Source: a virus
Taxonomy: Duplodnaviria; Heunggongvirae; Uroviricota; Caudoviricetes
Strand: one strand, 5' to 3'
DNA: 39,308 bases
Virus record (IMG/VR): IMGVR_UViG_2541047861_000010
Coordinates: 1 to 39,308 of that record
A program made the position numbers and the translations under genes. Shown in pieces: positions 1 to 16,214 of this stretch. Under the pieces are notes generated by a model. It saw only the letters and a list, made by a program, of their open reading frames with translations, ran no database searches and was not told the origin of the DNA. Every line of letters begins with the position of its first letter. Within the stretch, counting starts at the first letter, position 1.

Positions 1-2109
1 TTACACCATACTGTTAACCTGGCCGGGTAATTCGCTAGCTGGAATACGAAAGGTATACCAGGCATAACGACAGCGTTTCCACAGGCTGGAGAAATGGAGA
101 TGATAAAGGAAATCTGCAATAATTTCGTTATCTGGATATAAAGACTCGGCAAAATGTGTCCAGCGCGCACTGAGTTTCATGTTAAACAGTTTTTCATCTT
201 CTTTGTTACCATACAGGCGCGACAAAGTAATCATTGCTTCGAGCGTACCTTTATTCGCTTCTTCTTGTACCTGTTGGAGGTGCAAATGAGCAAGTGAGAG
301 TTCTTTCACCTCAAAGATATTAAGTAAAAAAAGCCCCCATGCTTTTTCATGTCCAGCTTCATGAGCCAGAAATAAATTGTCAAGGAGATTTTTTTCATAA
401 ATAGCCCGTGTTTCTTTAGAAATTTCTTGTTTATTTAGTGCCTGGTAGCAGATAGCAATGCTAAAATAAATATTTTGTAGATCTTGTTGATGTTCGCTAT
501 AACCATAATTTTTTACCAGTGGATAAGATACCGAGCTATGGAAATTTAGGTCATCTTGAAGTATTTTAAGTGCCCGTCGAAAATACTCCAAAGCTGTAGA
601 TGGTTCATAAGGTAATTTTGTATTGTCTTCCTTATCCAAATATTCAAGAGCAACTAAATTTAATGCGGCAGGAATATTTCTTTGCTTACCAATTGTCGCA
701 AGCGGAATGAAATAATCAGAAAGGTCAAACCAACTCAAATCTTTTATTGCCGACCGCCAATTATGATTGTATTTAATGTCACTAGCTTTTTCCAGCCAAG
801 CATCGCCCTGCCCTTCATCTTTTTCAAAACCCAAAATACCCTCTCGCTGGAAAAACCCCCTATAAATAACAGGTGTAGCATAAGTTGTATTCTGTGAATT
901 TTGGCAGATAAAATTATATATCCAGAATGAATCTGGATAATAACTTAATGCAAATTTTATCGCGTACGCAGTGTAATAATTATTGAGCTTCATGTCTTCC
1001 ATCACCGCTCGCTGTATACAGCACCACAACTTATCGTGATCGTTCTGCTTGTTATAGCAGGCAAGTAACCACTCTAGGGCATTATGGCGACATTCCTGAA
1101 ATTGTGCGTACTGAGCAATATTCTCTGCTAAGTCGATTGCATATTGTTGCTCCTCGGGCGCAATGTCCTCAATGCTGACATCTCGGTAATCATCCCACCA
1201 AAGTAAGAGATCCATATAGTCATGTTCTTCGGTAGATAAGTGCTTACAGGTTACTGAATCCAGCAATTCGGAAATTTCTTTATGCGACCCTCCCCAGCGT
1301 GGCATTCGAAATGGTATATATTCAACAAAAGGATAAAAAGTGTGAGGAAAAATAGTCAGACAAACAGAAAGCCAATATTTTTGCCCACCATCATCATCAT
1401 ACTCAGGAAGTATATTGGGGCGAGGCAAAACGGGGCATATTGCATGCTCAAACGAAAGTCCGGAATACGCCATCAACGCTTCCACTTCTTGCGGGGAGCG
1501 GCGGTGATAATTTTTCAGTGCGATCATTAATGGTATTCCTGCGACACTATCACCGTTAAGGTGTGCCGCCAGCCAGGCTGGCTGACCAAATACTTTTGAG
1601 TTGGTGCTGGTAAGTAATGCAGCCATCCATTGTCGTGGGTCACAATCAATTGCTTTAAGTGTAGCGATGACCATTTGTTCATTACATGCACCAGCACAAA
1701 GCCACATTGCATGTGTGGTATCATTTGCCCAGCCATAACTGCGATATAACCATGCACGGTGATTCCAGTATTGTGCTTCGGCAAGCCAGGCATGTGTAGA
1801 ATGAGGTCTTGCTTGCTGCCAGGTTTTAATGAGTCTTAAACCTTCTGTTCCGGCATCAACTAGCGTGTTCATATCATAAAAATAGTTGCACATTTGGGTC
1901 CAGGATAAAAAATAGCGCTTTTCAGCCTGACGAGAAGTGAAACTCTCCTGTAATACCTGGTTATAAATTTCATCTAGTTCCTGATAACGTTTTTCTTGTA
2001 ACATATAAGGAATATTTGCGATTTGCCATTTTCTCTCAAGAGTATTAAGTGGCATTTTTTGGTCACACATCTTTTGCATTGCACTGAGTAAACGAGCATC
2101 CTGTTCCAT
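1..2109 (-). CDS. Hypothetical cytoplasmic protein, 702 aa, Trp/Tyr-rich; last gene of an AT-rich three-gene operon
   Basis: Full ORF 1-2148; start placed at internal ATG 2107-2109 (MEQDARLL) because AAGGA sits 6 nt upstream and this avoids overlap with the upstream gene. Stop codon is at window bases 1-3. No hydrophobic N-terminus. No family recognised from memory. Confidence 0.6.
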   Translation of the reverse strand: MEQDARLLSAMQKMCDQKMPLNTLERKWQIANIPYMLQEKRYQELDEIYNQVLQESFTSRQAEKRYFLSWTQMCNYFYDMNTLVDAGTEGLRLIKTWQQARPHSTHAWLAEAQYWNHRAWLYRSYGWANDTTHAMWLCAGACNEQMVIATLKAIDCDPRQWMAALLTSTNSKVFGQPAWLAAHLNGDSVAGIPLMIALKNYHRRSPQEVEALMAYSGLSFEHAICPVLPRPNILPEYDDDGGQKYWLSVCLTIFPHTFYPFVEYIPFRMPRWGGSHKEISELLDSVTCKHLSTEEHDYMDLLLWWDDYRDVSIEDIAPEEQQYAIDLAENIAQYAQFQECRHNALEWLLACYNKQNDHDKLWCCIQRAVMEDMKLNNYYTAYAIKFALSYYPDSFWIYNFICQNSQNTTYATPVIYRGFFQREGILGFEKDEGQGDAWLEKASDIKYNHNWRSAIKDLSWFDLSDYFIPLATIGKQRNIPAALNLVALEYLDKEDNTKLPYEPSTALEYFRRALKILQDDLNFHSSVSYPLVKNYGYSEHQQDLQNIYFSIAICYQALNKQEISKETRAIYEKNLLDNLFLAHEAGHEKAWGLFLLNIFEVKELSLAHLHLQQVQEEANKGTLEAMITLSRLYGNKEDEKLFNMKLSARWTHFAESLYPDNEIIADFLYHLHFSSLWKRCRYAWYTFRIPASELPGQVNSMV

Positions 2110-2119
2110 AGATATCCTT

Positions 2120-2836
2120 TTAATTAGGTTCAAAAATTTTAAATTCATTCCACGGCAATTTTTTCCAGTTACTGGATGGATCTTTCAACCATGCAGTGAC
2201 TTCCTTTAAATCACGGTTCGCAGTGGCGACGGGGGTATCGTATATCATTAACCATTTTTGTCGGGCGCGAACATAAGCACTGGCATAATCTTCCCATGAA
2301 GCGAAACAATCTTGTGCTCTTTGAGCATTCAGTAATAACACTATCCAGGCCTGGTTTTCATCGCACCAGCCTAAACCGGCGATGCAACGAGTTAAAAAAG
2401 CAGTGCGCATACAGTCAAACGCCAGCCCATCCAGAACCTGGCCTTGTGCTGCCAGTTGTTCGTAAAAATCATGTGGAGAATTACCAAGCCCTGTAGCCCA
2501 GCGCTGTAATATAACGCCAATTTGTTGACGGAAATCTTCGTTGCTTTGGTAAGTTTCTGTTCCTAGCTCTTGTTTAACCTGTAGTGCAAGTTGTTGACGC
2601 TTATCATCAGTCAACTTTAAATCTAACGTGAAGCCATTTACTGACAGTCCATTACGACGAGCAACTATATCACCAATTGCTAATGCCCACTTACGTCTCT
2701 TTGTTGCTCGTCTTTTGTCCTTGATTAGATCCTTTTCTTTTTCTTTAGCAATAAAAGCATCGATTTGTGGTTTGTTTTTTTTGTATCTATAGATAAAAAT
2801 AAATATTGCGACCAGGAGAACAATGATAAGACTCAT
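2120..2836 (-). CDS. Hypothetical membrane-anchored protein, 238 aa, single N-terminal hydrophobic helix
   Basis: ORF with ATG start; N-terminus SLIIVLLVAIFIFIYRY followed by KKNK looks like a signal anchor. Start overlaps stop of upstream gene (TAATG). Possibly DUF1266-like, unverified. Confidence 0.6.
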   Translation of the reverse strand: MSLIIVLLVAIFIFIYRYKKNKPQIDAFIAKEKEKDLIKDKRRATKRRKWALAIGDIVARRNGLSVNGFTLDLKLTDDKRQQLALQVKQELGTETYQSNEDFRQQIGVILQRWATGLGNSPHDFYEQLAAQGQVLDGLAFDCMRTAFLTRCIAGLGWCDENQAWIVLLLNAQRAQDCFASWEDYASAYVRARQKWLMIYDTPVATANRDLKEVTAWLKDPSSNWKKLPWNEFKIFEPN

Positions 2837-4050
2837 TATTTTTCAACCTCTGACAGGGGTAAGTAATGAGATGTCTGTAATGTCAAACTCTCTATCTCAA
2901 AGGAAATGTTGCTGATATTTTGACCTGCAAATTGCGGATGCCACTCAGCGCCAGGGAATAACATTTCCGCAGAAGTAGCAACTATAGGGTCAATAGCATT
3001 AAGATAATGTAACTTATCAGGTGCGCTGTGTAACAGTAACCACTGCAACTCCACTGAAGGATTTGTAAAATGTTCTAATAAATGAAAGTTATTATGTAGT
3101 ACGCTTAGTAAAAAACTGGTTTCGTATACTTCCGTTACATATTTCCACCCCTGATATTCAGGTGTATTTTCATAAACAATACCCATACCTTCACAATCAC
3201 TATGTCGAACTGCTTGTGGTGATAATAGTTGCAAAAGAGACAAAACATCGTCCGCATATTTTTTAACTGGATGACGATTTTGCTTACCTTTTATTTGATC
3301 AATTTCAAGTGAATCACCAACAACATTGAGAGCAATAGTAACATGAGGAATATTATTATTATCACGCAAACTGAATAACCGTAATTTATGTTGCTCAATT
3401 TGATTTGCATAATACTCACCATAACCACCGGTAAGATTTTTTCGATCATCAAACTGGCCTACGCAATGTTGCATATGCCATGATTCATAAGCCATTTCAC
3501 GACGAAGGTTCGAATGACTGGCATCAAACTCAACAATTTTTCCGTCTGGCACATCAAGTATTGACTTTACAGTATTTTGTTCACTCGGCTGCCACCCTTT
3601 CTCGCGTCGTTGAAGCATCTTTTCATGCTCTTCTTCACGCATTCTGAACGCAACGTAGCAGGTTATGCGCTGTAGTTTTGATTCCAGACGGGTACCACAT
3701 TTCCTGGAAAGAAATTCCACCAACTCCCGTTCTTTGGTTAATATTTGTTGATGATCGGTTTCGATATAATAAAGTGTCGCAGTTGATACTGAGGCAGTAT
3801 TAAACTTCGATACCAGCCATTCCGGGATTACATCATCATTTTTATTAAACAGTGAATATTCTGCAAGCGAGTTAATTTGTTGCACCATTGGAAAGTCACT
3901 AATTAGCCATCGATAAAAATGGTTGAGTAACCATTTTTGGATGGTCTCATTATCCTGGCGAAACAGACTTCTTTGCAAAATTGCTGTTTTTACTTCCGGG
4001 GCATTAATTACATCCCTTGCATTATAATTCTGGTGAATATTTCCAGTCAT
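2836..4050 (-). CDS. Hypothetical protein, 404 aa; first gene of AT-rich three-gene operon
   Basis: ORF with ATG start at 4048-4050. Hand-counted GC of a 60-nt sample in this island is about 32 percent, versus about 60 percent in a prophage structural-gene sample (23161-23220). No confident domain assignment. Confidence 0.6.
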   Translation of the reverse strand: MTGNIHQNYNARDVINAPEVKTAILQRSLFRQDNETIQKWLLNHFYRWLISDFPMVQQINSLAEYSLFNKNDDVIPEWLVSKFNTASVSTATLYYIETDHQQILTKERELVEFLSRKCGTRLESKLQRITCYVAFRMREEEHEKMLQRREKGWQPSEQNTVKSILDVPDGKIVEFDASHSNLRREMAYESWHMQHCVGQFDDRKNLTGGYGEYYANQIEQHKLRLFSLRDNNNIPHVTIALNVVGDSLEIDQIKGKQNRHPVKKYADDVLSLLQLLSPQAVRHSDCEGMGIVYENTPEYQGWKYVTEVYETSFLLSVLHNNFHLLEHFTNPSVELQWLLLHSAPDKLHYLNAIDPIVATSAEMLFPGAEWHPQFAGQNISNISFEIESLTLQTSHYLPLSEVEK

Positions 4051-4537
4051 AACATCCGCCCGTGTTTATTATATCACTCAAAGCAATAATTGTTGACTAT
4101 AGATTTTTTATCTAAATCAGCATGGTTGCAGGTACATACTCAAGTAAGCCACTCAAGAAAATAACGTAAACTCAATAGTGGCAGCGTCACAAACTTTGGA
4201 AATTATGTCTTATATTTGCAGTTTATTTTAGTGAATAATTGAGATAAATGACATTATTTTACATCCTCAATAATTCAGGCTGTAAGAGGACGGCAAATAC
4301 ATTCATAATTATCAGGGGATGAACATTCAGGAAAGTAGTCAGTATCGTCAACTTTTTCTTTTATCACTACATGAAGATTTCGTGTAGATACTCCCATCTC
4401 TGCCACTTCTCCCCTCACATTTACACTGGAGCTAAACCCGCCGATTGCGCTACAATGCCCGCCCTTAAAGTGGGGGCACTCCCCTAACCGCTTCATCAGG
4501 TGAAGCGGCTCTGACCTGTCATCAGAACGAGAGAATT

Positions 4538-5899
4538 ATGTTTAAACCGGAACTCCTTTCCCCGGCGGGAACGCTGAAAAATATGCGTTACGCTTTCGCT
4601 TATGGCGCAGATGCTGTTTATGCGGGCCAGCCGCGTTACTCCCTGCGTGTACGCAACAACGAATTCAACCACGAAAATCTTCAGCTCGGCATCAATGAAG
4701 CCCACGCGCTGGGGAAAAAGTTTTATGTCGTGGTCAACATTGCACCGCACAACGCCAAGCTGAAAACCTTTATCCGTGACCTGAAACCGGTGGTGGAAAT
4801 GGGGCCGGATGCGCTGATTATGTCCGATCCAGGGCTGATTATGCTGGTGCGTGAACACTTCCCGGAAATGCCAATCCACCTCTCGGTACAGGCTAACGCC
4901 GTAAACTGGGCGACGGTGAAATTCTGGCAGCAAATGGGTCTGACCCGCGTGATCCTCTCTCGCGAACTGTCACTGGAAGAGATTGAAGAGATCCGCAATC
5001 AGGTGCCGGATATGGAGATCGAAATCTTCGTTCACGGCGCGCTGTGCATGGCCTACTCCGGTCGCTGCCTGCTCTCTGGCTATATCAACAAGCGCGACCC
5101 GAACCAGGGCACCTGCACCAACGCCTGCCGCTGGGAGTACAATGTCCAGGAAGGGAAAGAAGATGACGTCGGCAACATCGTACACAAGTACGAGCCGATT
5201 CCGGTGCAAAATGTTGAGCCGACGCTGGGTATCGGCGCGCCAACCGACAAAGTGTTTATGATCGAAGAAGCCCAGCGTCCGGGCGAGTATATGACCGCGT
5301 TTGAAGATGAGCACGGCACTTACATCATGAACTCGAAAGATCTGCGCGCCATCGCCCATGTTGAACGCCTGACCAAAATGGGCGTGCATTCGCTGAAAAT
5401 CGAAGGCCGTACCAAATCTTTCTACTATTGCGCACGCACCGCGCAGGTTTACCGTAAAGCTATCGATGACGCCGCTGCGGGCAAACCGTTCGATACCAGC
5501 CTGCTGGAAACGCTGGAAGGTCTGGCGCATCGTGGCTATACCGAAGGTTTCCTGCGTCGTCATACCCACGACGATTATCAGAACTACGAATACGGTTATT
5601 CGGTTTCTGACCGCCAGCAGTTTGTTGGTGAGTTTACCGGTGAGCGCAAGGGGGAGCTCGCGGCGGTAGCGGTGAAAAATAAATTCTCCGTTGGCGACAG
5701 CCTTGAGCTGATGACGCCGCAAGGCAACATTAACTTTACCCTTGAGCATATGGAAAACGCCAAAGGTGAAGCGATGCCGGTCGCACCAGGCGATGGTTAT
5801 ACTGTGTGGCTCCCGGTGCCGCAGGATCTTGAGCTAAATTACGCGCTGCTGATGCGTAATTTCTCCGGGGAAACCACGCGTAACCCCCACGGTAAGTGA
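4538..5899 (+). CDS. yegQ: Peptidase U32-family protein YegQ (tRNA hydroxylation protein TrhP)
   Basis: 453-aa translation beginning MFKPELLSPAGTLKNMRYAFAYGADAVYAGQPRYSLRVRNNEF matches my recollection of E. coli YegQ in length and sequence; followed by cyaR as in E. coli K-12. Confidence 0.9.
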   Translation: MFKPELLSPAGTLKNMRYAFAYGADAVYAGQPRYSLRVRNNEFNHENLQLGINEAHALGKKFYVVVNIAPHNAKLKTFIRDLKPVVEMGPDALIMSDPGLIMLVREHFPEMPIHLSVQANAVNWATVKFWQQMGLTRVILSRELSLEEIEEIRNQVPDMEIEIFVHGALCMAYSGRCLLSGYINKRDPNQGTCTNACRWEYNVQEGKEDDVGNIVHKYEPIPVQNVEPTLGIGAPTDKVFMIEEAQRPGEYMTAFEDEHGTYIMNSKDLRAIAHVERLTKMGVHSLKIEGRTKSFYYCARTAQVYRKAIDDAAAGKPFDTSLLETLEGLAHRGYTEGFLRRHTHDDYQNYEYGYSVSDRQQFVGEFTGERKGELAAVAVKNKFSVGDSLELMTPQGNINFTLEHMENAKGEAMPVAPGDGYTVWLPVPQDLELNYALLMRNFSGETTRNPHGK

Positions 5900-5934: not shown

Positions 5935-5983
5935 TAGAAACCGATCACATACAGCTGCATTTATTAAGGTTATCATCCGTTTC
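5935..5983 (+). promoter_or_regulatory. Putative cyaR promoter region (candidate -10 TATCAT at 5971-5976; possible CRP half-site GATCACA upstream)
   Basis: Position immediately upstream of the cyaR 5' end; cyaR is known to be CRP-dependent. Motif match is by eye and weak. Confidence 0.35.
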
Positions 5984-6070
5984 GCTGAAAAACATAACCC
6001 ATAAAATGCTAGCTGTACCAGGAACCACCTCCTTAGCCTGTGTAATCTCCCTTACACGGGCTTATTTTTT
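5984..6070 (+). ncRNA. cyaR: Small regulatory RNA CyaR (RyeE), Hfq-dependent, with intrinsic terminator
   Basis: Sequence GCTGAAAAACATAACCCATAAAATGCTAGCTGTACCAGGAACCACCTCCTTAGCCTGTGTAATCTCCCTTACACGGGCTTATTTTTT matches recalled E. coli cyaR; ends in a hairpin (CCCTTACACGGG) plus U-tract. Confidence 0.85.
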
Positions 6071-6071: not shown

Positions 6072-6134
6072 CGCGTAATACAATGAAATAAAAGGATTTA
6101 TTTCTGGTCACGTCCACACATTGACCACATCGAC

Positions 6135-6158
6135 AAAAAAGCCCCTCGACTGAGGGGC
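6135..6158 (-). terminator. Rho-independent terminator downstream of ogr
   Basis: Hairpin GCCCCTC-GACT-GAGGGGC with a T6 tract on the minus strand (A6 at 6135-6140 on plus). Confidence 0.6.
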
Positions 6159-6171
6159 TTCCTGTTTGTAA

Positions 6172-6390
6172 TTACATCCACATAATTTGCTGCCCTGACG
6201 GCAACGGGTGCGGCCTTACGGCGTGGACTTCTCCCGGCTTCACGATGTATCGCTGTACCGACTCATAAGTGATGAACGTGGCGCTGCAATTCACGTTCTG
6301 GCACTGGTGATAACGCTCTTTTGTCGTGTCAGTGATATAGCGACTTGTACGCGCATGTGCGGCATGCTGGCATAAAGGACAATGAAACAT
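6172..6390 (-). CDS. ogr: Late-gene transcription activator Ogr (zinc-finger)
   Basis: 72-aa product MFHCPLCQHAAHARTSRYITDTTKERYHQCQNVNCSATF... with a four-Cys motif, matching P2 Ogr; start at internal ATG with GGAAGAGG upstream. Confidence 0.9.
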   Translation of the reverse strand: MFHCPLCQHAAHARTSRYITDTTKERYHQCQNVNCSATFITYESVQRYIVKPGEVHAVRPHPLPSGQQIMWM

Positions 6391-6471
6391 CGCGAGCACC
6401 TCTTCCGGTTTTGTTGATGGTGCCATTTTAGTTAATTTATCCTTATAAAACAAACAGATAAATAAAACATA

Positions 6472-7635
6472 TCACTCATTATCTTCTGTTTCGTACTCCA
6501 CATCAGAAAGCCTGACCTCAAGCTCTAAGGACGTCGTGAAGCCGCTATTATTCAGAAAATGTGTCACCTTAGTGATTGTCCAGTCCTGCTCGTCTATGAC
6601 GCGCTTAAAGCCTGACACTTTAACCGGTGTTTCCGTGTAAATATCTGCCCGACCAGTAGCCAGGCTGATGGAGAACTCCGCTACACCCCGTTGCAGCTTA
6701 TCCCACTTCGCCTGAGCGGCACGCATGGCCTGTGCTTTCGTGGCATATACCGTGGTCAGGGCAAAAACGTTATCAACCTCACCGGCCATGTATTCACCTT
6801 CGCGCGCTTCCGGTACTTTTGGCGCTTTCTTCTGCGTGACTGGTTTCGCTTTCGGGTGCTCCAGTGCGCGCAGGTGTTTCTCTTTCTTTTTGCGTTTCAG
6901 TTTTACCTTCTGCTTTTGCGGCTTCGGGTCTTTGGTGTGTAACCACTTTGCCGTTACGCCGGTATAGGCTCCACGGTCAGCAATCGCAAAATGATGACGG
7001 TCGCCGTCGCTGCGGGTGATGGTAATCTGCGGGATTTTTTTACCGCTGGACGTCACCCCCTGCCCCGCTTTGAGAAACAACAGTTTTCCCATTTTTACCG
7101 ACACCTCACCGCCGTTGCGTTCTGCAAGACGGGTCAGGAATTTCGCATCAGACTCCTGCGACTGGTCGATGTGCGGGATTTTAATTCCTGCCAGTGACGG
7201 CGCGACACTGGCTTCCAGCCTGTTACGGGAGGCTATCGCCTCAACAATCGCACCGAGCGTGGTGTCATGCCAGGAGCCTTCACGGCGGGAATTGAGCGTC
7301 CCGCGAAAATCTGCACTCCGGGCGCGGATGGTGACCACATCCGGTGCGCCCCGGTGTTCAACCTCATCAACGGTAAATTTCCCTTTGCATACCAGGGCAA
7401 AACCTTTCCAGCCGATATACACCGTCAGGACAGCGCCACGAACCGGCAGTCCGACCTGCCCGTCGGCATCGTTCAGTTCAATATCAAGCTGGTCAGCCTC
7501 AAAGCCCCGGTTATCCGTCAGGGTCATGCTCATCAGACGGTCGCTGATATTGCCGGTAATATCCCTGCTGTCGAGCATCAGCATGTAATCCGGCGTCAGC
7601 GTACTGCCTGCATCAAATGTCAGCGCATCCAGCAT
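6472..7635 (-). CDS. D: P2 gpD-like tail protein (387 aa)
   Basis: Length and sequence consistent with P2 gpD; position next to ogr and U. Confidence 0.9.
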   Translation of the reverse strand: MLDALTFDAGSTLTPDYMLMLDSRDITGNISDRLMSMTLTDNRGFEADQLDIELNDADGQVGLPVRGAVLTVYIGWKGFALVCKGKFTVDEVEHRGAPDVVTIRARSADFRGTLNSRREGSWHDTTLGAIVEAIASRNRLEASVAPSLAGIKIPHIDQSQESDAKFLTRLAERNGGEVSVKMGKLLFLKAGQGVTSSGKKIPQITITRSDGDRHHFAIADRGAYTGVTAKWLHTKDPKPQKQKVKLKRKKKEKHLRALEHPKAKPVTQKKAPKVPEAREGEYMAGEVDNVFALTTVYATKAQAMRAAQAKWDKLQRGVAEFSISLATGRADIYTETPVKVSGFKRVIDEQDWTITKVTHFLNNSGFTTSLELEVRLSDVEYETEDNE

Positions 7636-8114
7636 TATCCCGCCTCCGTCATACCCGTGAATTTAGTCGCTATACTGCCAGCCTTACCGATGAGCGATTC
7701 CGCCTGTTTACCGATATCGCCATAAAGCGCGGCCAGTGATTCATCAACGCGGGTGAGCGACAGCGTAAAATCAATTTTCCGGGGTGTGCCGTCTGCAAAG
7801 AAAATACTCCCTGTTTCACTCACCTTACTGATGACATACATGCCATAAATCATGCCGGTGCCATCCAGCAACGGCCACGCCCGGCCTTCCTCTGCCATCA
7901 GCCTGAGCGTGGTCATCGTCAGCTTTCCGCCGGTCAGTTCGGGATAAAGCACACCGGCAAGCGTGATGTTTTCCTCACCCACACCGAGAAATTGAAAGGC
8001 ATCCCGTTTGCCGATACGGGAATTTGACGGCCAGCGATAATCTGATTCACGCTGCATGGTCTGGTGTGGCAGCGTCTGGCGCATAAAAACAAACATACCT
8101 AACGCGAGCATCAT
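7635..8114 (-). CDS. U: P2 gpU-like tail protein (159 aa)
   Basis: Length and synteny (between T and D) match P2 U. Confidence 0.9.
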   Translation of the reverse strand: MMLALGMFVFMRQTLPHQTMQRESDYRWPSNSRIGKRDAFQFLGVGEENITLAGVLYPELTGGKLTMTTLRLMAEEGRAWPLLDGTGMIYGMYVISKVSETGSIFFADGTPRKIDFTLSLTRVDESLAALYGDIGKQAESLIGKAGSIATKFTGMTEAG

Positions 8115-8128
8115 TTTTCGTCACCTCC

Positions 8129-10576
8129 TTAACCGTCATGCATCATGCTGGCACGGGCGCGCGCACGTTTATCCCGCTCGTATTTTTCGAGCGCATCCTG
8201 TAACTGGCGGTCAAGCTGTGTCCCCGGCGCAGTACCACCCGTCAGGCTGATGTGATATTCGTTTTTACTCTGGTCTACATAAGAGCGGCCAGCCGGTGCC
8301 GTGACCGGCTGATAAGCCTGATAGCCTGCATAAGAGCTGGTCGCCGGAATATAACCACCGCTGCCATACGTGGCGGCTTGAGTTCTGGCGGCGGTCTGGT
8401 CAAGTGTGTCTGACTCTTTGTTGATAACACCGAGTTTTTCCAGTACCCAGTCAATGCCGCTGCGCAGTTTGTTGAACGCATTAAGCGGCAGCATCAGCGC
8501 GTCAGCCAGTGCCTGCCCGAACATGACCCCCGTGTCACGGCAACGGTTCAGGGTGTCCTGAGTGGCTTTGACCGGGGCAATCAGGTTTTTAAACCACTGC
8601 CACGCGGCCTGTAACTTTTCACCCAGCCAGTCAAACACCGGCTTAAGTGGCGTGAACAGTTCCCCCACCGGCGCAAATGCCACTTTCAGCCCTTCAACCA
8701 CACCGCCAAAGAATGCGCTGACAGGCTCCCAGTATTTACGGATAAGCAACGCCCCGGCGACAATGGCGGCCACCACGGCCACAACCGGCCAGCTAATAGC
8801 CCCGATGGCGGTCATAACAGCACTGCCAACCGTCGTGAAGACTGCCCCCATTGCGCCTGCTGCCGCGATGATGGCATTGATGCCGGTGATAACCGGCCAG
8901 GCTACAAGACCAATTGCACCGATGATGCCAGTCAGCGCCAGCGCGCCACCGACAATGAGGCCGATGGTTGACGCCAGTGATTTGTTTTTCTGGATCCAGC
9001 CGTCGAGTTTTAACACATACTTTGTGGCCGTCTGCGTGAGCTTACGCAGCGCGCCTTCCTGCTGGTCAAACAGGTCAGTCCCCACCGCCTCATAAGCGGA
9101 CTGAAACTCTTTAAAGTCACCGCCTAGGTTGTCCTGCATGATATTTACCAGCTCGGCGGTCTTCCCGTCTGAGGCTTTAAACGCAGCGGTCAGTTTGTCC
9201 AGCTTTCCGGTTGAGGCGGCAGTCATCAGCACGGCGGCGGCTGAGCTGGCCTCCTCCCCGAAAATAGTTTTCATGTATTCAGCCTGCTGGGCAGTACCGA
9301 GCCGGTTTTTCTCAAAACTGGCCTGCATTTCTTTCAGAATGGTAAATACTGGCCGGGTGTTTCCCTTGCTGTCTGAGGTTTTCACACCAAGCTCTTTGAG
9401 TGCATCCCATGCTTTTCCCGTCGGTGCCTGCAGGCGGCTTAACACGGCACGGCTTCCCGTCCCCGCTATTGAACCGGTAATTTTTGCATCATGCAGCGCC
9501 CCGACCATTGCGGCGGTTTCTTCAATGCTGACACCGGCATTTTTTGCCACAGGTGCGGCATAGGTCAGCGCATCGCTCATGCCGTCAAAATCGGCGGCGG
9601 TTTTGTTCATCGTCATGGAGAGAACATCCCCGATATGAGCGACCTTATCGTTTGAAAGCTGAAAGGCGGATTTCATCCCCATCAGCAGGGCGGCGTTTTC
9701 TTCCATCGTGCGACGGTTCGCCAGCGCCATATTCAGCGTGACCGGCGTTGCCGCCTGAATGGCATCAACATCCCCACCCGCTTTCGCGATGATTATCTGT
9801 GCACCGGCCGCATCATCCGCCGAGGCGGCGGTATTGTCGCCGAGCTGGCGCGCCTGTTTGCGTAGTGCGGTCATTTCGGCGGAGTCTTTTGCCACTCCGA
9901 GCACGGCCTGCAATTCTGAGTTTTTCTGCGCAAACTCATAACCGGGCATCAGCAACTTAACTCCGGCCATCGTTCCCGCCGCCGCAATCCCCACACCGGC
10001 AGCGCCCACCGAGGCCATATTTCCGGCCAGTTCCTTTCCGGCCTGATAACGCTGTTTTACTGCATTAAGTTTTGCCTGTTGCGCACTGACACGCGCCAGC
10101 GCGTCACGCTGCCGGTTAAGCTGTGCGGTGGTTTCACTGATACGGTTTTTCAGTCCCTGCTCATCATGTGCAAGATTGCGGGTATTAATTCCCACAGCGG
10201 CCAGTTCCCGCTGCTGGCGCTTAACGGAATCCGTCAGGCGGTTATATTTCGCCTGTAAGTCCTCCGCCGCACGCTTTGCGGATTCCAGCACTTTCGCCTG
10301 AGCACGGGTCGGACGTTCAGTGTTTTTAAACTGTGTGGCAAGGGCTTCGGCTTCCTGCCGTGCCTTTTCAAGTGCATGACCAGTCACGGCAAGCTGTGCG
10401 CTGGTCTTGCGAAATCCCTCAATACGGGATGCGTGACCGTTCAGCTCGCGCAGTGATTTTTGTGTTTCCCGGATATCCCCCGACAGCGACTTACTCGCTG
10501 TGCGGATGGATTTAAACGGGCGGGATGCCTGGTCAACAGCCCTGAGCAATACCTGTAATTTTACATTGTTACTCAT
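8129..10576 (-). CDS. T: Tail tape measure protein gpT (815 aa)
   Basis: 815 aa, Ala/Gln-rich coiled-coil N-half and hydrophobic Gly/Ala-rich segment; start ATGAGTAAC overlaps the E' stop as in P2. Confidence 0.9.
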   Translation of the reverse strand: MSNNVKLQVLLRAVDQASRPFKSIRTASKSLSGDIRETQKSLRELNGHASRIEGFRKTSAQLAVTGHALEKARQEAEALATQFKNTERPTRAQAKVLESAKRAAEDLQAKYNRLTDSVKRQQRELAAVGINTRNLAHDEQGLKNRISETTAQLNRQRDALARVSAQQAKLNAVKQRYQAGKELAGNMASVGAAGVGIAAAGTMAGVKLLMPGYEFAQKNSELQAVLGVAKDSAEMTALRKQARQLGDNTAASADDAAGAQIIIAKAGGDVDAIQAATPVTLNMALANRRTMEENAALLMGMKSAFQLSNDKVAHIGDVLSMTMNKTAADFDGMSDALTYAAPVAKNAGVSIEETAAMVGALHDAKITGSIAGTGSRAVLSRLQAPTGKAWDALKELGVKTSDSKGNTRPVFTILKEMQASFEKNRLGTAQQAEYMKTIFGEEASSAAAVLMTAASTGKLDKLTAAFKASDGKTAELVNIMQDNLGGDFKEFQSAYEAVGTDLFDQQEGALRKLTQTATKYVLKLDGWIQKNKSLASTIGLIVGGALALTGIIGAIGLVAWPVITGINAIIAAAGAMGAVFTTVGSAVMTAIGAISWPVVAVVAAIVAGALLIRKYWEPVSAFFGGVVEGLKVAFAPVGELFTPLKPVFDWLGEKLQAAWQWFKNLIAPVKATQDTLNRCRDTGVMFGQALADALMLPLNAFNKLRSGIDWVLEKLGVINKESDTLDQTAARTQAATYGSGGYIPATSSYAGYQAYQPVTAPAGRSYVDQSKNEYHISLTGGTAPGTQLDRQLQDALEKYERDKRARARASMMHDG

Positions 10577-10996
10577 TCGTGTTTCCGCTTCGCCGGAGCG
10601 CCTTTTCGCGCCATGTGATGAGTTCGGTCAGGCTCATGGGATACAGTTCTGATGGCGCCCAGTGAAATATCACTGCCACATCCGCCATCAGGTCATCGAC
10701 CGAGAGATTTTTCGGAAACGTCACTGCACCGAGTTCGGCGACAAAAAACCGACCACCTTACCGGCCAGCGCCACAAGGTCAGGCAGCTCCAGCGCGGCGA
10801 CTTCCTGCTCGGTCAGCATCGGTGCCGTCATGCGCGGCAGCACTTTAATCAGTGCATCGACTTCGGAGTTTGCGACCGCAGCCAGACTGACACCGCGCAG
10901 CGTCCCGGCATTGGGTTTCATCAGCGTGACCTGTTCGATAACCTGCTCACCACGCTTGACCGGATTGTCCAGGGTAATCACATTTTCTTTGTTCAT
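10569..10996 (-). CDS. E': Tail assembly chaperone gpE+E', made by programmed -1 ribosomal frameshift at TTTTTTG (10742-10748)
   Basis: On the minus strand GGT TTT TTG lies 8 codons before the E stop. The -1 frame stays open to a TAA at 10569-10571 and translates as ...ITWREKALRRSGNTNE, matching my recollection of the P2 E' C-terminus. Confidence 0.7.
10721..10996 (-). CDS. E: Tail assembly chaperone gpE (91 aa)
   Basis: 91-aa product MNKENVITLDNPVKRGEQVIEQVTLMKPNAGTLRG... matching P2 gpE; contains slippery heptamer near its 3' end. Confidence 0.85.
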   Translation of the reverse strand: MNKENVITLDNPVKRGEQVIEQVTLMKPNAGTLRGVSLAAVANSEVDALIKVLPRMTAPMLTEQEVAALELPDLVALAGKVVGFLSPNSVQ

Positions 10997-11052
10997 GGTT
11001 TTCTCACTTCTGAATCAGGGTTAACCGGTCAGCCAGGCTGACCGGATGAAAA

Positions 11053-11571
11053 TCACAGGCCGATATTGCGGCGGTGTTGCTCCAGCCGGTCGACGCCGTT
11101 CACCTTCTCAATCATGTTGATGGTGTCAATTTCGACCAGCTCCTTACCGTCCATCGTCAGCCGGAAATAGGTGCAGACCACGGAGATTTTCGACTCGGTG
11201 TCTTCTCCCTGTTTACCCTCGCCGGTGTCGATTTCTTTCTGACGGCCACGCATGACCACTTCGACGGCCACCGTTTCGCCAGTATCGTCACGCTGGTAAG
11301 AGCCTGCAAAACGAATCGGCACGGCATCCACACCGGTTGCGGCGTAAAGTTCCCAGATAACCGAATCCGGGAAGCCCCCGAGCGACCACTCCATTGACAG
11401 CGCATCATCATCAAGGCCGAGGTCTACCGGGGCGCTGCCGTTCATCCCCGCACCGCGATAGTTTTCGAGCTTACGGGTCAGTTTTGGCAGCGTGACGGAC
11501 TTTGCAACGCCCTGATAGCTGTAGCCGTTCAGAAAGACGTTCATTAACTTGAGTTTGCGCGGCATTGCCAT
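11053..11571 (-). CDS. FII: Tail tube protein gpFII (172 aa)
   Basis: Length, sequence and position downstream of FI match P2. Confidence 0.9.
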   Translation of the reverse strand: MAMPRKLKLMNVFLNGYSYQGVAKSVTLPKLTRKLENYRGAGMNGSAPVDLGLDDDALSMEWSLGGFPDSVIWELYAATGVDAVPIRFAGSYQRDDTGETVAVEVVMRGRQKEIDTGEGKQGEDTESKISVVCTYFRLTMDGKELVEIDTINMIEKVNGVDRLEQHRRNIGL

Positions 11572-11583
11572 CGGTCAGGCTCC

Positions 11584-12774
11584 TTAATTGCTGTTAACCG
11601 AAGTGACCAGATTTGCCAGGTATTTATCGGTAATACGCTGGCGCAGGGTCAGGTTTTCGAGAGGAGGCACCGGGGTATAGTCGTAGTCGATATACAGTTT
11701 TCCGGCCTTGAGGGTTTCCGCATCGTTGGATTCTTCGCTGAACCAGCAGGTCGCATCCACGATATAGCCGTTTGTTTTCAGCTCACGGAATTTGGCATTG
11801 ATGCCGTCAACGATGTCGCGAATCAGCGTTGCGGTGATGGGCTTGTCCACCGCCCACATGTGCGCCTCAGCCATCGTGTCGGCCAGCACCTGCGCGGTGC
11901 GGGTGTAGTTTTCAAAGAGGAACAGCGGGTCATCAGAGCAGGTACGGTTACCCCAGAAGCGGAAACCGTCGCGGCGAATCAGCGTTGTGACGCCTGACTC
12001 GTTCAGCAGGTCAGCATCGGTGCCGGACTCCTGCAAATCCCAGAATACAGATGCGCTGATGCCGGTAACACCGTTCACCCCGACGTTGGACAGCGTTTTA
12101 TGCCATCCCTGCTCCTGGTCGATTTTGGCACGCAGCCCCAGCGCACGGGCGGTGGCATACGCGGTGGCGGTGGTACTGGTGACCGTATCCCATGCGAGGA
12201 AATCCGGCCAGATGACCATCAGCTCACGCTGGCTGAAATTCTGGCGGTAGGCTTTCACCTCAGAAATGGTTTTACAGCCCCATGCGCTGATATACCCGAA
12301 AGCGCGCAGCTTCTGACAGACTGATGCCAGTGCGACGGCAACCTCTTTGGTGTCCAGTCCCGGCACACCGAGAATGCGCGGCTTAACACCGGTTACCGAC
12401 TCCGCCGCCAGCAGGGCTTTCAGTCCGGTGTACTGACCGTTTTCGTCAGTGGTGCCGATGATATTGGAAACGGTCTGCGCGAGTTTCGTTTCTTCATCGT
12501 CGCCGGTGCCGTCTTCCACACGCACGACAACGGTGACCGGTTTTGACTGGTCGGCGATGGCCTGCAACGATGCCGCCAGCGTGCCTTTTTTACCGGCCTT
12601 TGCAATTGCGCTCTGCACATTGGTAATCAGCACAGGTTTATTGAGGGGGAAGGTTTCCGCATCCGCATCGCTGGCCGTGCAGACCATGCCGACAATGGCC
12701 GTGGATACGGTGGAAATGACGCGGGTGCCGTCGTTAATCTCCAGCACCTGCACGCCGTGATGATAGTCACTCAT
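11584..12774 (-). CDS. FI: Contractile tail sheath protein gpFI (396 aa)
   Basis: 396 aa, MSDYHHGVQVLEINDGTRVISTVSTAIVG... matches P2 FI. Confidence 0.9.
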   Translation of the reverse strand: MSDYHHGVQVLEINDGTRVISTVSTAIVGMVCTASDADAETFPLNKPVLITNVQSAIAKAGKKGTLAASLQAIADQSKPVTVVVRVEDGTGDDEETKLAQTVSNIIGTTDENGQYTGLKALLAAESVTGVKPRILGVPGLDTKEVAVALASVCQKLRAFGYISAWGCKTISEVKAYRQNFSQRELMVIWPDFLAWDTVTSTTATAYATARALGLRAKIDQEQGWHKTLSNVGVNGVTGISASVFWDLQESGTDADLLNESGVTTLIRRDGFRFWGNRTCSDDPLFLFENYTRTAQVLADTMAEAHMWAVDKPITATLIRDIVDGINAKFRELKTNGYIVDATCWFSEESNDAETLKAGKLYIDYDYTPVPPLENLTLRQRITDKYLANLVTSVNSN

Positions 12775-12870
12775 CCGTTTAACTCCGTGGTTAATGGGTG
12801 CAACTATTTTCTGTTGGGCAGTACATGAGACGCTATTTGACCTGGCTGGTCAGTGGATGAAACAACAGAT

Positions 12871-12897
12871 AAAGAAAAGGCGGGCAATCCGCCCGCC
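12871..12897 (-). terminator. Rho-independent terminator after tail-fibre operon gene G
   Basis: Hairpin GGCGGGC-AATCC-GCCCGCC with a T-rich tract on the minus strand (AAAGAAAA on plus). Confidence 0.5.
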
Positions 12898-12902
12898 TGT
12901 AT

Positions 12903-13430
12903 TTATTGTGGTAGCTCCGGCCATTCAGGATTTGCAGGATCCACACGACTGACCAGAACGCTGTAGCGTTCCCATGCCTCCAGTCGGCTGCGCTCCTCAT
13001 CTGTTGCCATATTCAGCCTGACAGCGCGCTCCAGCGGCAAAATCACGGATTCAGCTTCGGAAAGCAAAGCTGCCTTTTTTGACTCCGCCAGTTGCTGCTG
13101 TTCGTCTGCCGTATAAATCCGCTTAATCACGGCACCGTCCTTAAACATCCATTTACCTGAGTCATCAGCTCGTCGGTTGGCGGTAATATCAGGGACTTCA
13201 ACGACGCTGAACCCCTCTGGATTAAGCGTTGATGCATCTTTGGTAATGGCGACAATAATATTATTCTCATCGTAAACAATCTTTATTGTGTCTTCCTGAA
13301 AATGCTTTACCTCTTCATACCAGTTTTTTCCATCCTCTGAAAATAACCAGATAACGTCGAATTTTTTTGTTAGTTGATATTGTTCAATGGTTTTCGGATT
13401 TCCTGACCTTATATTTTTTAAATGCTGCAT
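12903..13430 (-). CDS. G: Tail fibre assembly protein gpG (175 aa), composition-mosaic
   Basis: 175 aa in the P2 G position; the N-terminal coding part is visibly AT-rich while the C-terminal part is GC-rich. Confidence 0.85.
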
Positions 13431-13433
13431 AAT

Positions 13434-16214
13434 TTACACCTGTGCGACGTTATACCATGTGCCATTGATGTATTTTTGTATCGGTCTGAAGATGGCTTCA
13501 TCATCGCCATCAACTTCACCAATAATTCTTAATCCGGTAAGTGTGTGTCCGGCCATCTCATAACGCCCGCCACGCGCCATCAATTGAACAACACGTGTTC
13601 CCAGGCGAACATCCATCACATAACGCCCGTCGAAATTACCGTAGTTACTTGGCACAACTTGTCCGGCAACAGTTAATCCATGGCCAATAGTGACTCCACC
13701 AGTGGAATTCTGAATATAGAATGGCCTTAAACTACTCCATCCCCCCATACTGTCACCGGAGTTGGTCAACATGAAATGGGTGAAATTACCATCATTTCGG
13801 ATAAAGAATCCATAGTTCCCACATACGATGCGATAACCGTTTGCTGACCTTGAAACAACTTCCCCATCAACAGTTAAACCGCCTGTAATAGTGCCACCGG
13901 ATATCGGTAAAGCACCAACATCACCAGCGGATGGTTTATGTGCTGTCGTATAAAGCTGTGCCCATCCAGACCACTGAGCGTCATCTGTATCCCGCCTTGA
14001 ACGAATATATGCTGGTGCATGAGCACCGCTGGTTCCACTCCAGCCGATAAGTAACTCACCTTCTCCGGTTGCGGATACCCCCGTAAGATGAAGCACATTG
14101 CCATAGGCATAAGGGTAGCCATTGTTATATGCCTCATACATCTGAATACCAGGCACCCCCTTCTCACTCCCGCTTAATGCAGCAACGCGATTCCTGGATA
14201 CCAGCGTATTAATATTGATATTGCCAGAACCATCAAATTTCACGCCGTTAATTGTCCTTGCCGTTTTCAGCTTTGTAGCTGTAGCCGCATTGCCGGACAG
14301 TTCGCCTGAAAGACCGGCGCTGAAGGTTTGTTTCGCCGCCCATGTCTGAGCTTCGTCGATAATTGGCACACGTCTTGTCGTGATCGTGCGGCTTCCCGGA
14401 TTTCCTGAAATACGCACCATAAAAAAGCGGTAGTTGGCTTTACTTACAGTGCTGCGCCATACATGCATTGAGCGCCCCGTACCGGAATCATCACTCGGAC
14501 CAACTGCGATGTTTATCAGGTTGCCATCAATGACGCCCCAGTCCATACCGTCGGGAATGTGGGTCATGTTATCAAGCCGAACGGTTATCAGACTGCCCGG
14601 CACAAAGTCGTAGGTCTGCCAGTCCAGGCTGGAGAGTTTTGCCACAGCGCCACCGATGCCCAGATTCAGAGGCAACGAAAAGGAGTTATATACTTCTCGC
14701 CATTCGGTCCATTTGCTCCCGGCGTAGACGCGCTCAAAAGTGCGTCCCTGTGTGGTTTCTGATTTCCCTGTGGTTGTGTAACGCTGCCAGACAGACACAC
14801 CATCAAAACGTCTGATTACTTCCAGTATCCCAAGTAGTGTCGCGCCAACGGTGTCCAGCATCGGACCGTTTGTTGCCTTTCCTGTAACACTGTAAATACC
14901 GGGGTCGGTTAGAACATTTAAATCACCCTCGTAATAACGACTCTCTGACTGATGACCGATTCTTAACCACGGTTCCCACTGCGGATTTGATGCATCCCAG
15001 CTTGCCGCAAGGCAGCGGACATACATATTTCCACGGCGAGTGGTATAACGTTGCGTTCTTCCATAATTCCCGCCTTCGAGGATCTCAAGCGTCCCCTGAG
15101 CAAAGCCGCCTTCCTCTGGATAATTGCGTTCATATGAAGCTATAGCCGAGCTACTGTTACGCCATAAACCAAGATGCTCGGCGGCTCCAAGCGTATTCAG
15201 GTCTATAGTCGTACTCAAAGGGCGGGTAGCAGATTGAGTGTGACGCCATACGCCCCACGGACCATCAGTGCCATTCCACTTATTGGCGAGTTTACGCATG
15301 TATACATTGCCGTCTCTCGTGGTAAAGCGTTGAGTACCTGCAAAATTGCCGGCAGCAAAAACCTCAAGCACACCGACAGCATTATCTTCCGGGAAATTTT
15401 TCTCCAGTGTTGCGTTAGTTGAGGTAGCTTTAGACCAGATCCCCAGATAAGCCTTAACGGGACCAAATGTATTCAGGTCGGCATCAACCGGCATTTCGCC
15501 ATTGTTTTTCATAAACGTCAGGCTGGTAACGCCAACATTGTCCAGAAAAGCTGATTTATCCTGGATATCTGCACCGTTCTGATTTTTCGCCAGACGTGAA
15601 TTTGCGTTGTCATTTGCTGCCTTGACCGCTTTTGGCGTTGCCGCCAATGACTCACTGGTGCTGTTTGTTGCACTGCTTAACTGAGTAAAACCTTTTTCTG
15701 TCAGCGTGGCGTCAGGATGGCGGCGGGACTGCTCATGCTCTGCGATTTTGTCATCGACATAATCCTGAGTCGCCATCACCGTGCTGGCATCAATACTCAG
15801 TTCAACGGACGCCACGTTGCTGAGAATAATAACCATGCGACAGGTCTGCGCACGCCCGGAGCCTTCAGCCAGTTCTGGCTTATAGCTTTCTGCCATGTTG
15901 GATACCGCAATCAGTGTTCCGGCATCGTCATACAGACCAAGCTCACGCATCCAGAAGCCGCCCACTTCGGGCGGTACAACCAGTTCAGCCACGATATAGT
16001 TTTTATTCTTATTATCCACGCTGACTTTATTCAGAGCGTGACGCCAGACCTCATGCACCAGTTTCGTCTGACCGGCATCCGGCACCGGCAATTTGCCATT
16101 ACCATCACCCACGGCCATTGCAGACAGGTTTACTTTTTTCCCGCCGGGGACAGTGGCGGCTGCCAGCTTTGCGGCTCCGGCAGTAGTGATAACGGTTTTA
16201 AATTTCGTGCTCAT
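13434..16214 (-). CDS. H: Tail fibre protein gpH (926 aa) with P2-like N-terminus and divergent longer C-terminal receptor-binding region
   Basis: N-terminus [25 protein letters not shown]... resembles P2 H (about 669 aa as I recall); C-terminus ends ...[17 protein letters not shown], a tail-fibre tip motif. Confidence 0.85.

Follow-up and report, generated by a model that had tools for sequence, protein, structure and literature searches.

The window analysed here, a viral stretch of 39,308 nucleotides (IMG/VR virus record IMGVR_UViG_2541047861_000010, positions 1 to 39,308 of that record), carries the gene trhP (yegQ), and the element under study is the 74-nt leader that precedes its start codon (Table 1). 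The leader combines two hairpins, P1 and P2, which are conserved in shape and variable in sequence, with a short element next to the Shine–Dalgarno (SD) sequence, P3, which is practically invariant and resembles the anticodon arm of tRNA-Thr4, one of the tRNAs whose wobble uridine is hydroxylated in a TrhP-dependent manner. The binding of a protein to this leader, the identity of that protein and an effect on translation are what we infer by analogy with the thrS operator: the leader would be a translational operator of the thrS type, providing substrate-mimic feedback by TrhP or another enzyme acting on wobble uridines, a tentative model which we consider somewhat short of an even chance. The original prediction, made from the sequence alone, was concerned with P1 and P2 and overlooked both P3 and the promoter, in which most of the interest lies. 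The window is Escherichia coli DNA, with 100% identity to strain ATCC 11775 at positions 4200–4600 (401 bases).

The conservation of P3 was assessed in a set of 171 Enterobacterales loci, which includes metagenomic ones. The motif N-CUGA-N7-UCAG-A was present in 171 of 171, ending 11–24 nt (mode 12) upstream of the ATG. A partial exception is the Erwinia locus L085, with CUGC in the 5′ arm and hence a mismatch closing the loop (UCUGC...UCAGA), and P3 may work differently in Erwiniaceae. The loop occurs in 13 variants across these loci, all of which fit YYUGNNN. Among 81 Enterobacteriaceae, the 17 positions of P3 have a mean entropy of only 0.042 bits, comparable to the first and second codon positions of trhP (0.08 and 0.03 bits, respectively), and the third codon positions of the same gene reach 0.77 bits, with 11% of them invariant. 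Of 110 distinct leaders, 93 contain P3 in their minimum free energy (MFE) fold, the median probability of its pairs being 0.73.

TrhP is needed for the prephenate-dependent hydroxylation of U34 in tRNA-Ala1, -Ser1, -Pro3, -Thr4, -Leu3 and -Val1 (PMC6599085). The genes of these six substrate tRNAs were fetched from MG1655, and P3 was compared with 19 tRNAs in all. The anticodon arm of thrU (anticodon UGU), ACUGA-CUUGUAA-UCAGU, is identical to the E. coli P3 at 13 of 17 positions, which comprise the four stem pairs, C32, U34-G35-U36 and A38 (numbered as in the tRNA), and the next-best of the 19 tRNAs scores 9 of 17. In two other leaders, L101 (ACUGA-CUUGUGA-UCAGA) and L122 (ACUGA-CUUGAAA-UCAGA), the match to the thrU arm rises to 15 of 17, and tRNA-Thr4 is the best tRNA match for all 21 full P3 variants. 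When random perfect hairpins with a 5-bp stem and a 7-nt loop were compared with the six substrate arms, a match of 13/17 had a probability of 0.0025 and one of 15/17 a probability of 7.5e-5, values which are optimistic since the likeness to a tRNA was noticed after the hairpin had been seen. The sequence CTGAYYTGNNNTCAG occurs in 748 kb of fetched DNA only in 174 trhP leaders and in thrU, with approximately 0.36 matches expected by chance, a count which is not independent, as thrU had been fetched deliberately. Within the P3 loop, U34 and G35 never change, and U, A or C stands at position 36. The resulting triplets, UGU, UGA and UGC, match the anticodons of tRNA-Thr4, -Ser1 and -Ala1, all of which carry 5-hydroxyuridine derivatives (xo5U) (PMC6599085).

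P1 and P2, which lie 30–66 nt upstream of the ATG, were found exactly as the original prediction had described them in sequence, coordinates and distance from yegQ. They are separated by TAA (from 4485), and P2 reads as RNA CCGCUUCA-UCAGG-UGAAGCGG. The statement that no T-tract follows the hairpins was equally correct: there is none at either stem, the bases directly 3′ of P2 being CTCTGACC. An intrinsic terminator was rejected, with stems that lack a U-tract, no terminator-like site between 3900 and 4700, and hairpins located 3′ of the transcription start site (TSS) of the next gene. An 86-nt segment containing the hairpins folds as RNA at −28.1 kcal/mol (z = −2.41 against dinucleotide shuffles), and perfect 8-bp stems with loops of 3–8 nt occur approximately 4 times per shuffled window, compared to approximately 16 distinct sites in the real one. 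Taken alone, P1 and P2 are thus mildly unusual, and it is the comparative data that put both beyond chance.

Comparison with the yegQ upstream regions of relatives, which had been proposed together with the original prediction, showed that the leader is present at all 171 Enterobacterales loci and that its structure is kept in the 81 Enterobacteriaceae. The leaders of the latter were aligned with MAFFT and then realigned to a covariance model, and the pairs of P1, P2 and P3 were counted. From the raw MAFFT alignment, in which P2 was out of register, RNAalifold recovered P3 alone, and the realignment mended the register. In the MAFFT alignment 91.6% of the cells were paired, compared to 37.6–58.8% with the partners slid against each other, and in the model-based alignment 95.5%, compared to at most 57.6%; none of 500 shuffles reached any of the observed measures. 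Compensatory double changes were found at 7 of the 8 pairs of P2 with MAFFT and at 8 of 8 in the model-based alignment, with as many as five different pairs at a position and 94.5% of cells paired. The support for P1 was weaker, with double changes at 2 of 4 pairs (covarying forms GAGG/CCUC and GUGG/CCAC) and 87–92% of cells paired, and in four leaders (L032, L033, L035 and L041) its loop holds 17–18 extra bases which extend the helix. In ten further Enterobacterales genera (Mixta, Erwinia, Pectobacterium, Morganella, Yersinia, Providencia, Photorhabdus, Limnobaculum, Sodalis and Leminorella) the P1 and P2 sequences are unrelated, yet a stable hairpin precedes P3, usually with a gap of 0–2 nt, or of 8–10 nt in Erwiniaceae. 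The leader of Erwinia amylovora (L085, approximately 930–965) contains AAGGCCGUC-UUCUG-GACGGCCUU followed by UCUCG, a weakly terminator-like arrangement. An alternative hairpin, GCCCUUA/UGGGGGC, which forms the MFE structure of the 86-nt segment, was rejected, as its 5′ arm is largely untranscribed given the mapped TSS; moreover, a G-to-A change in Citrobacter amalonaticus is compensated in the GGGG/CCCC pairing and not in this one. P1 and P2 are accordingly conserved RNA helices of the trhP leader, forming its variable-sequence, conserved-shape part, and in themselves they are ordinary scaffold helices.

The extent of the transcript follows from an operon table for MG1655, which lists a TSS at 2165594, a transcription termination site at 2167196 and the genes b2081 and b4438, i.e. 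trhP and cyaR (PMC6131387 supplement). With the trhP ATG of MG1655 at 2165668, and the TSS carried over to the window through an ungapped alignment, the 5′ untranslated region (5′UTR) spans 4464–4537. Since transcription starts at this position, P1, P2 and everything up to the AUG belong to the transcribed leader. The TSS was taken from SMRT-Cappable-seq; the TSS tables of Adams 2021, ROSE and Shigella M90T yielded nothing. According to the same SMRT-Cappable-seq operon (b2081|b4438), the small RNA (sRNA) gene cyaR is co-transcribed with trhP, and the transcript ends at the CyaR terminator. The original suggestion of a 5′-leader structure thereby holds for the location of the hairpins, between a mapped TSS and the start codon, and for their conserved structure, and a regulatory role of the hairpins is putative.

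The transcript starts from a conserved sigma-70 promoter, TTTACY-17 nt-TACAAT: TTTAC(T/C) is found 17 nt upstream of the −10 hexamer in almost all of the 81 Enterobacteriaceae leaders, and the order TTTAC(T/C), 17-nt C-rich spacer, TACAAT, CCCGCCC is kept in 80 other Enterobacteriaceae species. The GC-rich CCCGCCC (4458–4464) is invariant and runs from the discriminator to the TSS, where transcription starts with a C, 8 nt past the −10. With these traits, the promoter would resemble the stringently controlled promoters of translation-apparatus genes, which are sensitive to guanosine tetraphosphate (ppGpp) and DksA. A leader peptide, running from an ATG at 4455 or a GTG at 4470 to the TAA at 4485, was rejected, as the ATG precedes the TSS and both the start and the frame lack conservation (many genera have TACAATT).

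Table 1. Features of the trhP leader and its surroundings, in window coordinates
Feature	Position	Strand	Remarks
Right-hand junction of the variable region	4447..4447	.	K-12-type genomes align from 4447, ParDE-type genomes from 4417
−10 hexamer TACAAT of the trhP promoter	4451..4456	+	Conserved in 81/81 Enterobacteriaceae leaders (one TATAAT); TSS 8 nt downstream
TSS of the trhP-cyaR transcript	4464..4464	+	SMRT-Cappable-seq, PMC6131387 supplement
P1 (hairpin 1), GGGG (4473–4476) / CACT / CCCC (4481–4484)	4473..4484	+	Direct reading
P2 (hairpin 2), CCGCTTCA (4488–4495) / TCAGG (4496–4500) / TGAAGCGG (4501–4508)	4488..4508	+	Direct reading
Linker base between P2 and P3	4509..4509	+	C in the window, A in K-12 and most E. 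coli
P3, UCUGA / CCUGUCA / UCAGA, anticodon-arm-like	4510..4526	+	Loop 4515–4521, anticodon-like UGU 4517–4519
SD-like GAGAG	4529..4533	+	2 nt past P3, 4 nt before the AUG; GAG conserved in the alignment
trhP (yegQ) coding sequence, peptidase-U32 family	4538..5899	+	Prephenate-dependent tRNA U34 hydroxylation factor; function from PMC6599085
CyaR sRNA gene	5982..6067	+	Rfam RF00112, 100.7 bits

In the proposed mechanism, P3 would be presented on the long P2 helix and act as the translational operator. TrhP, or some further xo5U-pathway enzyme that recognises U34, would bind the P3 mimic when in excess over its unmodified tRNA substrates, and the bound protein would block the 30S subunit at the adjacent ribosome-binding site. 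Unmodified substrate tRNAs would compete for the protein and thereby relieve the repression. P1 and P2 may in addition keep P3 from misfolding, and they would probably shield the 5′ end of the transcript against decay.

Besides the optimistic probability values mentioned above, a number of observations weigh against such feedback. P3 is without covariation: its four core pairs never vary, and position 27 varies while position 43 stays A. Because the sequence is invariant, the case for a P3 hairpin comes from energy prediction and analogy, and a DNA site would explain the invariant palindrome just as well. In the window itself, the C at 4509 lowers the predicted P3 probability from 0.83 to 0.18, favouring a pairing of CUCU with the SD. 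The loop of the E. coli P3, CCUGUCA, has C33 and C37, where true tRNAs carry a U and a purine, respectively; loops with U33 occur in other families (CUUGUGA, CUUGAAC and CUUGAAA), some of them with a purine at 37. The six TrhP substrates, moreover, differ in their stems and two of them have A35, and an invariant stem of the Thr4 type and an invariant G35 are therefore not obviously needed for recognition. Sakai et al. (PMC6599085) note that neither a direct contact of TrhP with RNA nor catalysis by this protein has yet been demonstrated. The P3 motif is also absent from the marine, 63%-identical trhP orthologs of the Oceanospirillales type (two lineages), which form the nearest non-Enterobacterales cluster, and CTGAYYTGNNNTCAG is absent from 80 kb around cmoA/cmoB, trhO and cmoM of K-12, the upstream regions of which contain no such hairpin. 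A metagenome scan for a wider spread returned Enterobacterales only, and a scan of viral contigs returned prophage-flank contigs which mostly start at the trhP start codon and hence come without a leader. As far as sampled, the element is specific to trhP and to Enterobacterales.

Two side observations concern the same regions. A pairing of the SD GAGAG with CUCCUUUCC (approximately 4553–4561, codons 6–8) is predicted, the latter being a stretch that is fixed by the conserved peptide PELLSPAG. Upstream of the Oceanospirillales-type trhP genes, a perfect TTGAT-N4-ATCAA was found, a box of the FNR/ANR type (TTGATGCAGATCAA and TTGATCTGCATCAA), located at approximately 526–541 in L181–L184 and 528–541 in L185, with trhP at 601. 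This suggests anaerobic transcriptional activation of the oxygen-independent pathway in these lineages.

The invariance of P3 and its likeness to a tRNA could be explained in other ways, of which a purely structural leader without any trans-acting factor is unlikely, if still a serious contender. P1 and P2 would then stabilise the transcript against RNase E/RppH-dependent decay and P3 would set the access to a weak SD, as a standby site or as a competitor of an SD-sequestering fold, and the resemblance to tRNA-Thr4 would be a coincidence. P1 and P2 do covary like simple structural helices, alternative folds pairing the SD (CUCU with GAGAG, or the SD with codons 6–9) lie within approximately 0.5 kcal/mol of the P3 fold, and a 13/17 match arises by chance in about one of 400 random hairpins. 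Such a role would, however, be expected to tolerate compensatory changes in P3 as it does in P2, whereas the P3 sequence is invariant throughout the order, including U34 and G35, with third codon positions near saturation, and a coincidence fits poorly with Thr4 being the best match of every P3 variant. It is slightly less probable still that P3 together with P2 forms an operator for threonyl-tRNA synthetase (ThrRS), a ribosomal protein, ProQ, Hfq, CsrA or an sRNA. The stem is specifically that of tRNA-Thr(UGU), Enterobacteriaceae keep G35-U36, and, like other translational operators, the hairpin adjoins the SD. The identity bases of ThrRS are G35 and U36, and U34 is not read by this enzyme. 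Position 36, however, is A or C in Yersinia, Morganella, Mixta, Providencia, Leminorella and others, which should abolish recognition by ThrRS, and the invariant U34 is precisely the base it does not read. Because U34 is invariant and position 36 is free, an enzyme acting on wobble uridines is favoured and ThrRS as the ligand is disfavoured. As for the other candidates, the leader contains no GGA motif for CsrA, the pairing of the sRNA CyaR is no stronger with the leader than with its shuffled versions and CyaR was rejected as a partner, and the motif is single-copy without any sign of a regulon.

That P3 acts as DNA is improbable, though its arms form a perfect invariant palindrome without covariation: TCTGA-N7-TCAGA would be an inverted-repeat operator at +47 to +63, at which a dimeric transcription factor blocks elongation or initiation. 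The conservation of the spacer is asymmetric, with C, Y, T and G fixed on the 5′ side and a free 3′ side, which is unexpected for a symmetric dimer, and RNA operators typically occupy such a place, far inside the transcribed leader and directly against the SD. Furthermore, it is the distance to the ATG that is kept and not that to the promoter, insertions of 17–18 nt in P1 being tolerated, and we know of no E. coli regulator with this consensus. A slimmer chance is given to the possibility that P3 is a true substrate, in which U4517 (+54) would be hydroxylated by TrhP/TrhO and perhaps be converted further, by CmoB and CmoM, to 5-carboxymethoxyuridine or its methyl ester, (m)cmo5U, with the modification setting the level of translation. 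The tRNAs methylated by CmoM (Ala1, Ser1, Pro3 and Thr4) presumably all have UGN anticodons, which would fit the invariant G35. If this were true, the trhP leader would be an mRNA-borne sensor of the capacity for wobble-uridine modification, and so of prephenate and oxygen supply. A small riboswitch for prephenate or a related metabolite of the shikimate pathway is very improbable. The activity of TrhP does depend on prephenate (PMC6599085), and the leader is structured and conserved with alternative folds that involve the SD, but only some 20 nt are conserved in sequence, P1 and P2 being free in sequence and length and replaced in other families, which leaves no conserved ligand pocket, and no Rfam match was found. 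Finally, the original prediction had also considered a REP-like element (repetitive extragenic palindromic) and the scar of an upstream island, and these readings, together with a terminator of the upstream gene or an att site, have next to no probability left. The hairpins adjoin a known islet hotspot and have a GC-rich, palindromic look. Against this, they lack a T-tract, lie 3′ of the mapped TSS and are present in island-free genomes and in other genera, and when the 91-nt leader region (4447–4537) was searched for copies (identity at least 95%; word size 11, E up to 10), a single site was found in 5424 of 5426 complete E. coli genomes (median 1, maximum 2). REP elements and bacterial interspersed mosaic elements (BIME) require dispersed copies, and the leader does not resemble the REP consensus. 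Rfam 15 contains no family at the leader, the best overlap being PhotoRC-I with 12.8 bits (E = 6.4) against a gathering score of 45.

The relation of the leader to the inserted DNA was resolved by reading three junctions, at which all E. coli junction types converge at GCGCTACAAT, from 4447 onward. The 30 nt upstream (4417–4446) are also common to ParDE-type and island-type strains, and the sequence left of 4447 as in the window is found in 298 of 5426 E. coli genomes. The yegP–trhP interval of ATCC 11775 holds four genes (for a hypothetical protein, DUF4034, DUF1266 and PcfJ), nothing is inserted at this site in K-12, and other strains carry a ParD/ParE module there. The leader is 98.9% identical in the island-free K-12 and in ParDE-type strains, the sole mismatch being A/C at 4509, and it is also present in 80 other Enterobacteriaceae species. 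The common core begins 25 nt upstream of P1 and the junction lies upstream of the −10, so that a scar or att site was rejected; since P1 and P2 lie at least 25 nt inside this core, they are no by-product of the insertion. The ancestral −35, TTTACC, has been replaced by inserted DNA in the window and in the ParDE type, with GGAGCT at the −35 position and TTTACA 8 bp farther upstream, and trhP transcription in island-bearing lineages may differ as a result of this loss. Promoter, TSS and leader of trhP constitute one conserved unit, which mobile islets have repeatedly cut at the −35.

The gap between yegP and trhP is a hotspot for inserted DNA, and the window carries part of the four-gene islet (1–4446); in Salmonella, the SAIDI-1 islet is likewise located upstream of yegQ (PMC7400221). 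A perfect 10-bp inverted repeat, AAAAATGGTT-GAGT-AACCATTTTT, lies at 3915–3938 inside the open reading frame of the islet with the PcfJ domain (2836–4050, minus strand). On the other side of trhP, a P2-like (Peduovirus) prophage begins directly after CyaR and reaches to approximately 16000 or farther, with positions 6100–16000 being 96% identical to the phages vB_EcoM-720R8 and P24E6b, and K-12 keeps only the ogrK/yegZ remnant.

No literature on the leader, promoter or autoregulation of yegQ/trhP was found in the collection of papers searched; yegQ is mentioned as a neighbour of CyaR, as a landmark for the Salmonella SAIDI-1 islet or for the enzyme itself, and regulation of trhP is mentioned neither in the founding paper (PMC6599085) nor in a 2026 review. 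The likeness of P3 to the anticodon arm of a substrate tRNA suggests an undescribed feedback switch. The 17-nt P3 makes both the regulation of trhP and the contact of TrhP with RNA testable, and could serve as a minimal RNA ligand in binding and reconstitution assays. If the proposed feedback is true, it would provide a homeostatic link between the load of unmodified tRNA and the synthesis of the anaerobic hydroxylation pathway.

Parts of the leader have counterparts in well-known elements of other kinds. Like the 5′ stem-loop of ompA, P1 and P2 are stable, near the 5′ end and conserved in shape rather than sequence; unlike the ompA stabiliser, P1 begins at +10, so that the first 9 nt are single-stranded, and the helices are tied to an invariant third hairpin. 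With REP and BIME sequences they share the nature of GC-rich imperfect palindromes in intergenic regions of E. coli, but the trhP hairpins are single-copy and in a 5′UTR, whereas REPs occur in hundreds of copies, mostly at the 3′ ends of genes. P3 is comparable to the sites of TadA in hokB, of Tgt in virF mRNA and of RluA in mRNAs, where look-alikes of an anticodon stem-loop are likewise found in mRNA. Such sites show that these enzymes accept minimal hairpins. They are, however, located in unrelated genes and are modified, whereas the trhP look-alike lies in the gene's own leader beside the SD. The feedback suggested here would be similar to the negative feedback by the ribosomal proteins S8, S15, L1 and L20, and by the methyltransferase ErmC on its own mRNA, where surplus protein attaches to an imitation of its substrate site within the leader of its own transcript, with the difference that those mimics copy rRNA sites and P3 copies an anticodon arm.

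The closest parallel is the thrS operator, through which ThrRS reportedly regulates its own synthesis by mimicry of the tRNA-Thr anticodon arm, as described by Springer, Romby and colleagues. As in thrS, for which the loop UUCGUGU of domain 2 was read upstream of UAAGGA for comparison, the SD of the trhP leader is directly preceded by a hairpin whose 7-nt loop resembles that of an anticodon arm, and the mRNA encodes a protein that deals with the tRNA in question. P3 shares with operators of the thrS type a location in the 5′UTR beside the ribosome-binding site, a 5-bp stem, and a 7-nt loop with the anticodon at loop positions 3–5. Operator and tRNA compete for ThrRS in the thrS system, as unmodified substrate tRNAs would do for the protein binding P3. 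The two systems also differ, as trhP encodes a tRNA-modification factor and not a synthetase, and its leader has one mimic hairpin stacked on a generic helix, compared to two mimic domains and a linker in thrS. The conserved loop bases of trhP are U34-G35 rather than G35-U36, and the E. coli version, through which repression would be exerted, is without U33 and a purine at 37. We know of no bacterial gene for tRNA modification with an anticodon-arm mimic in its leader, and a literature search found none; if the proposed feedback is true, the substrate mimicry of thrS would thus extend from the synthetases to a tRNA-modification enzyme.

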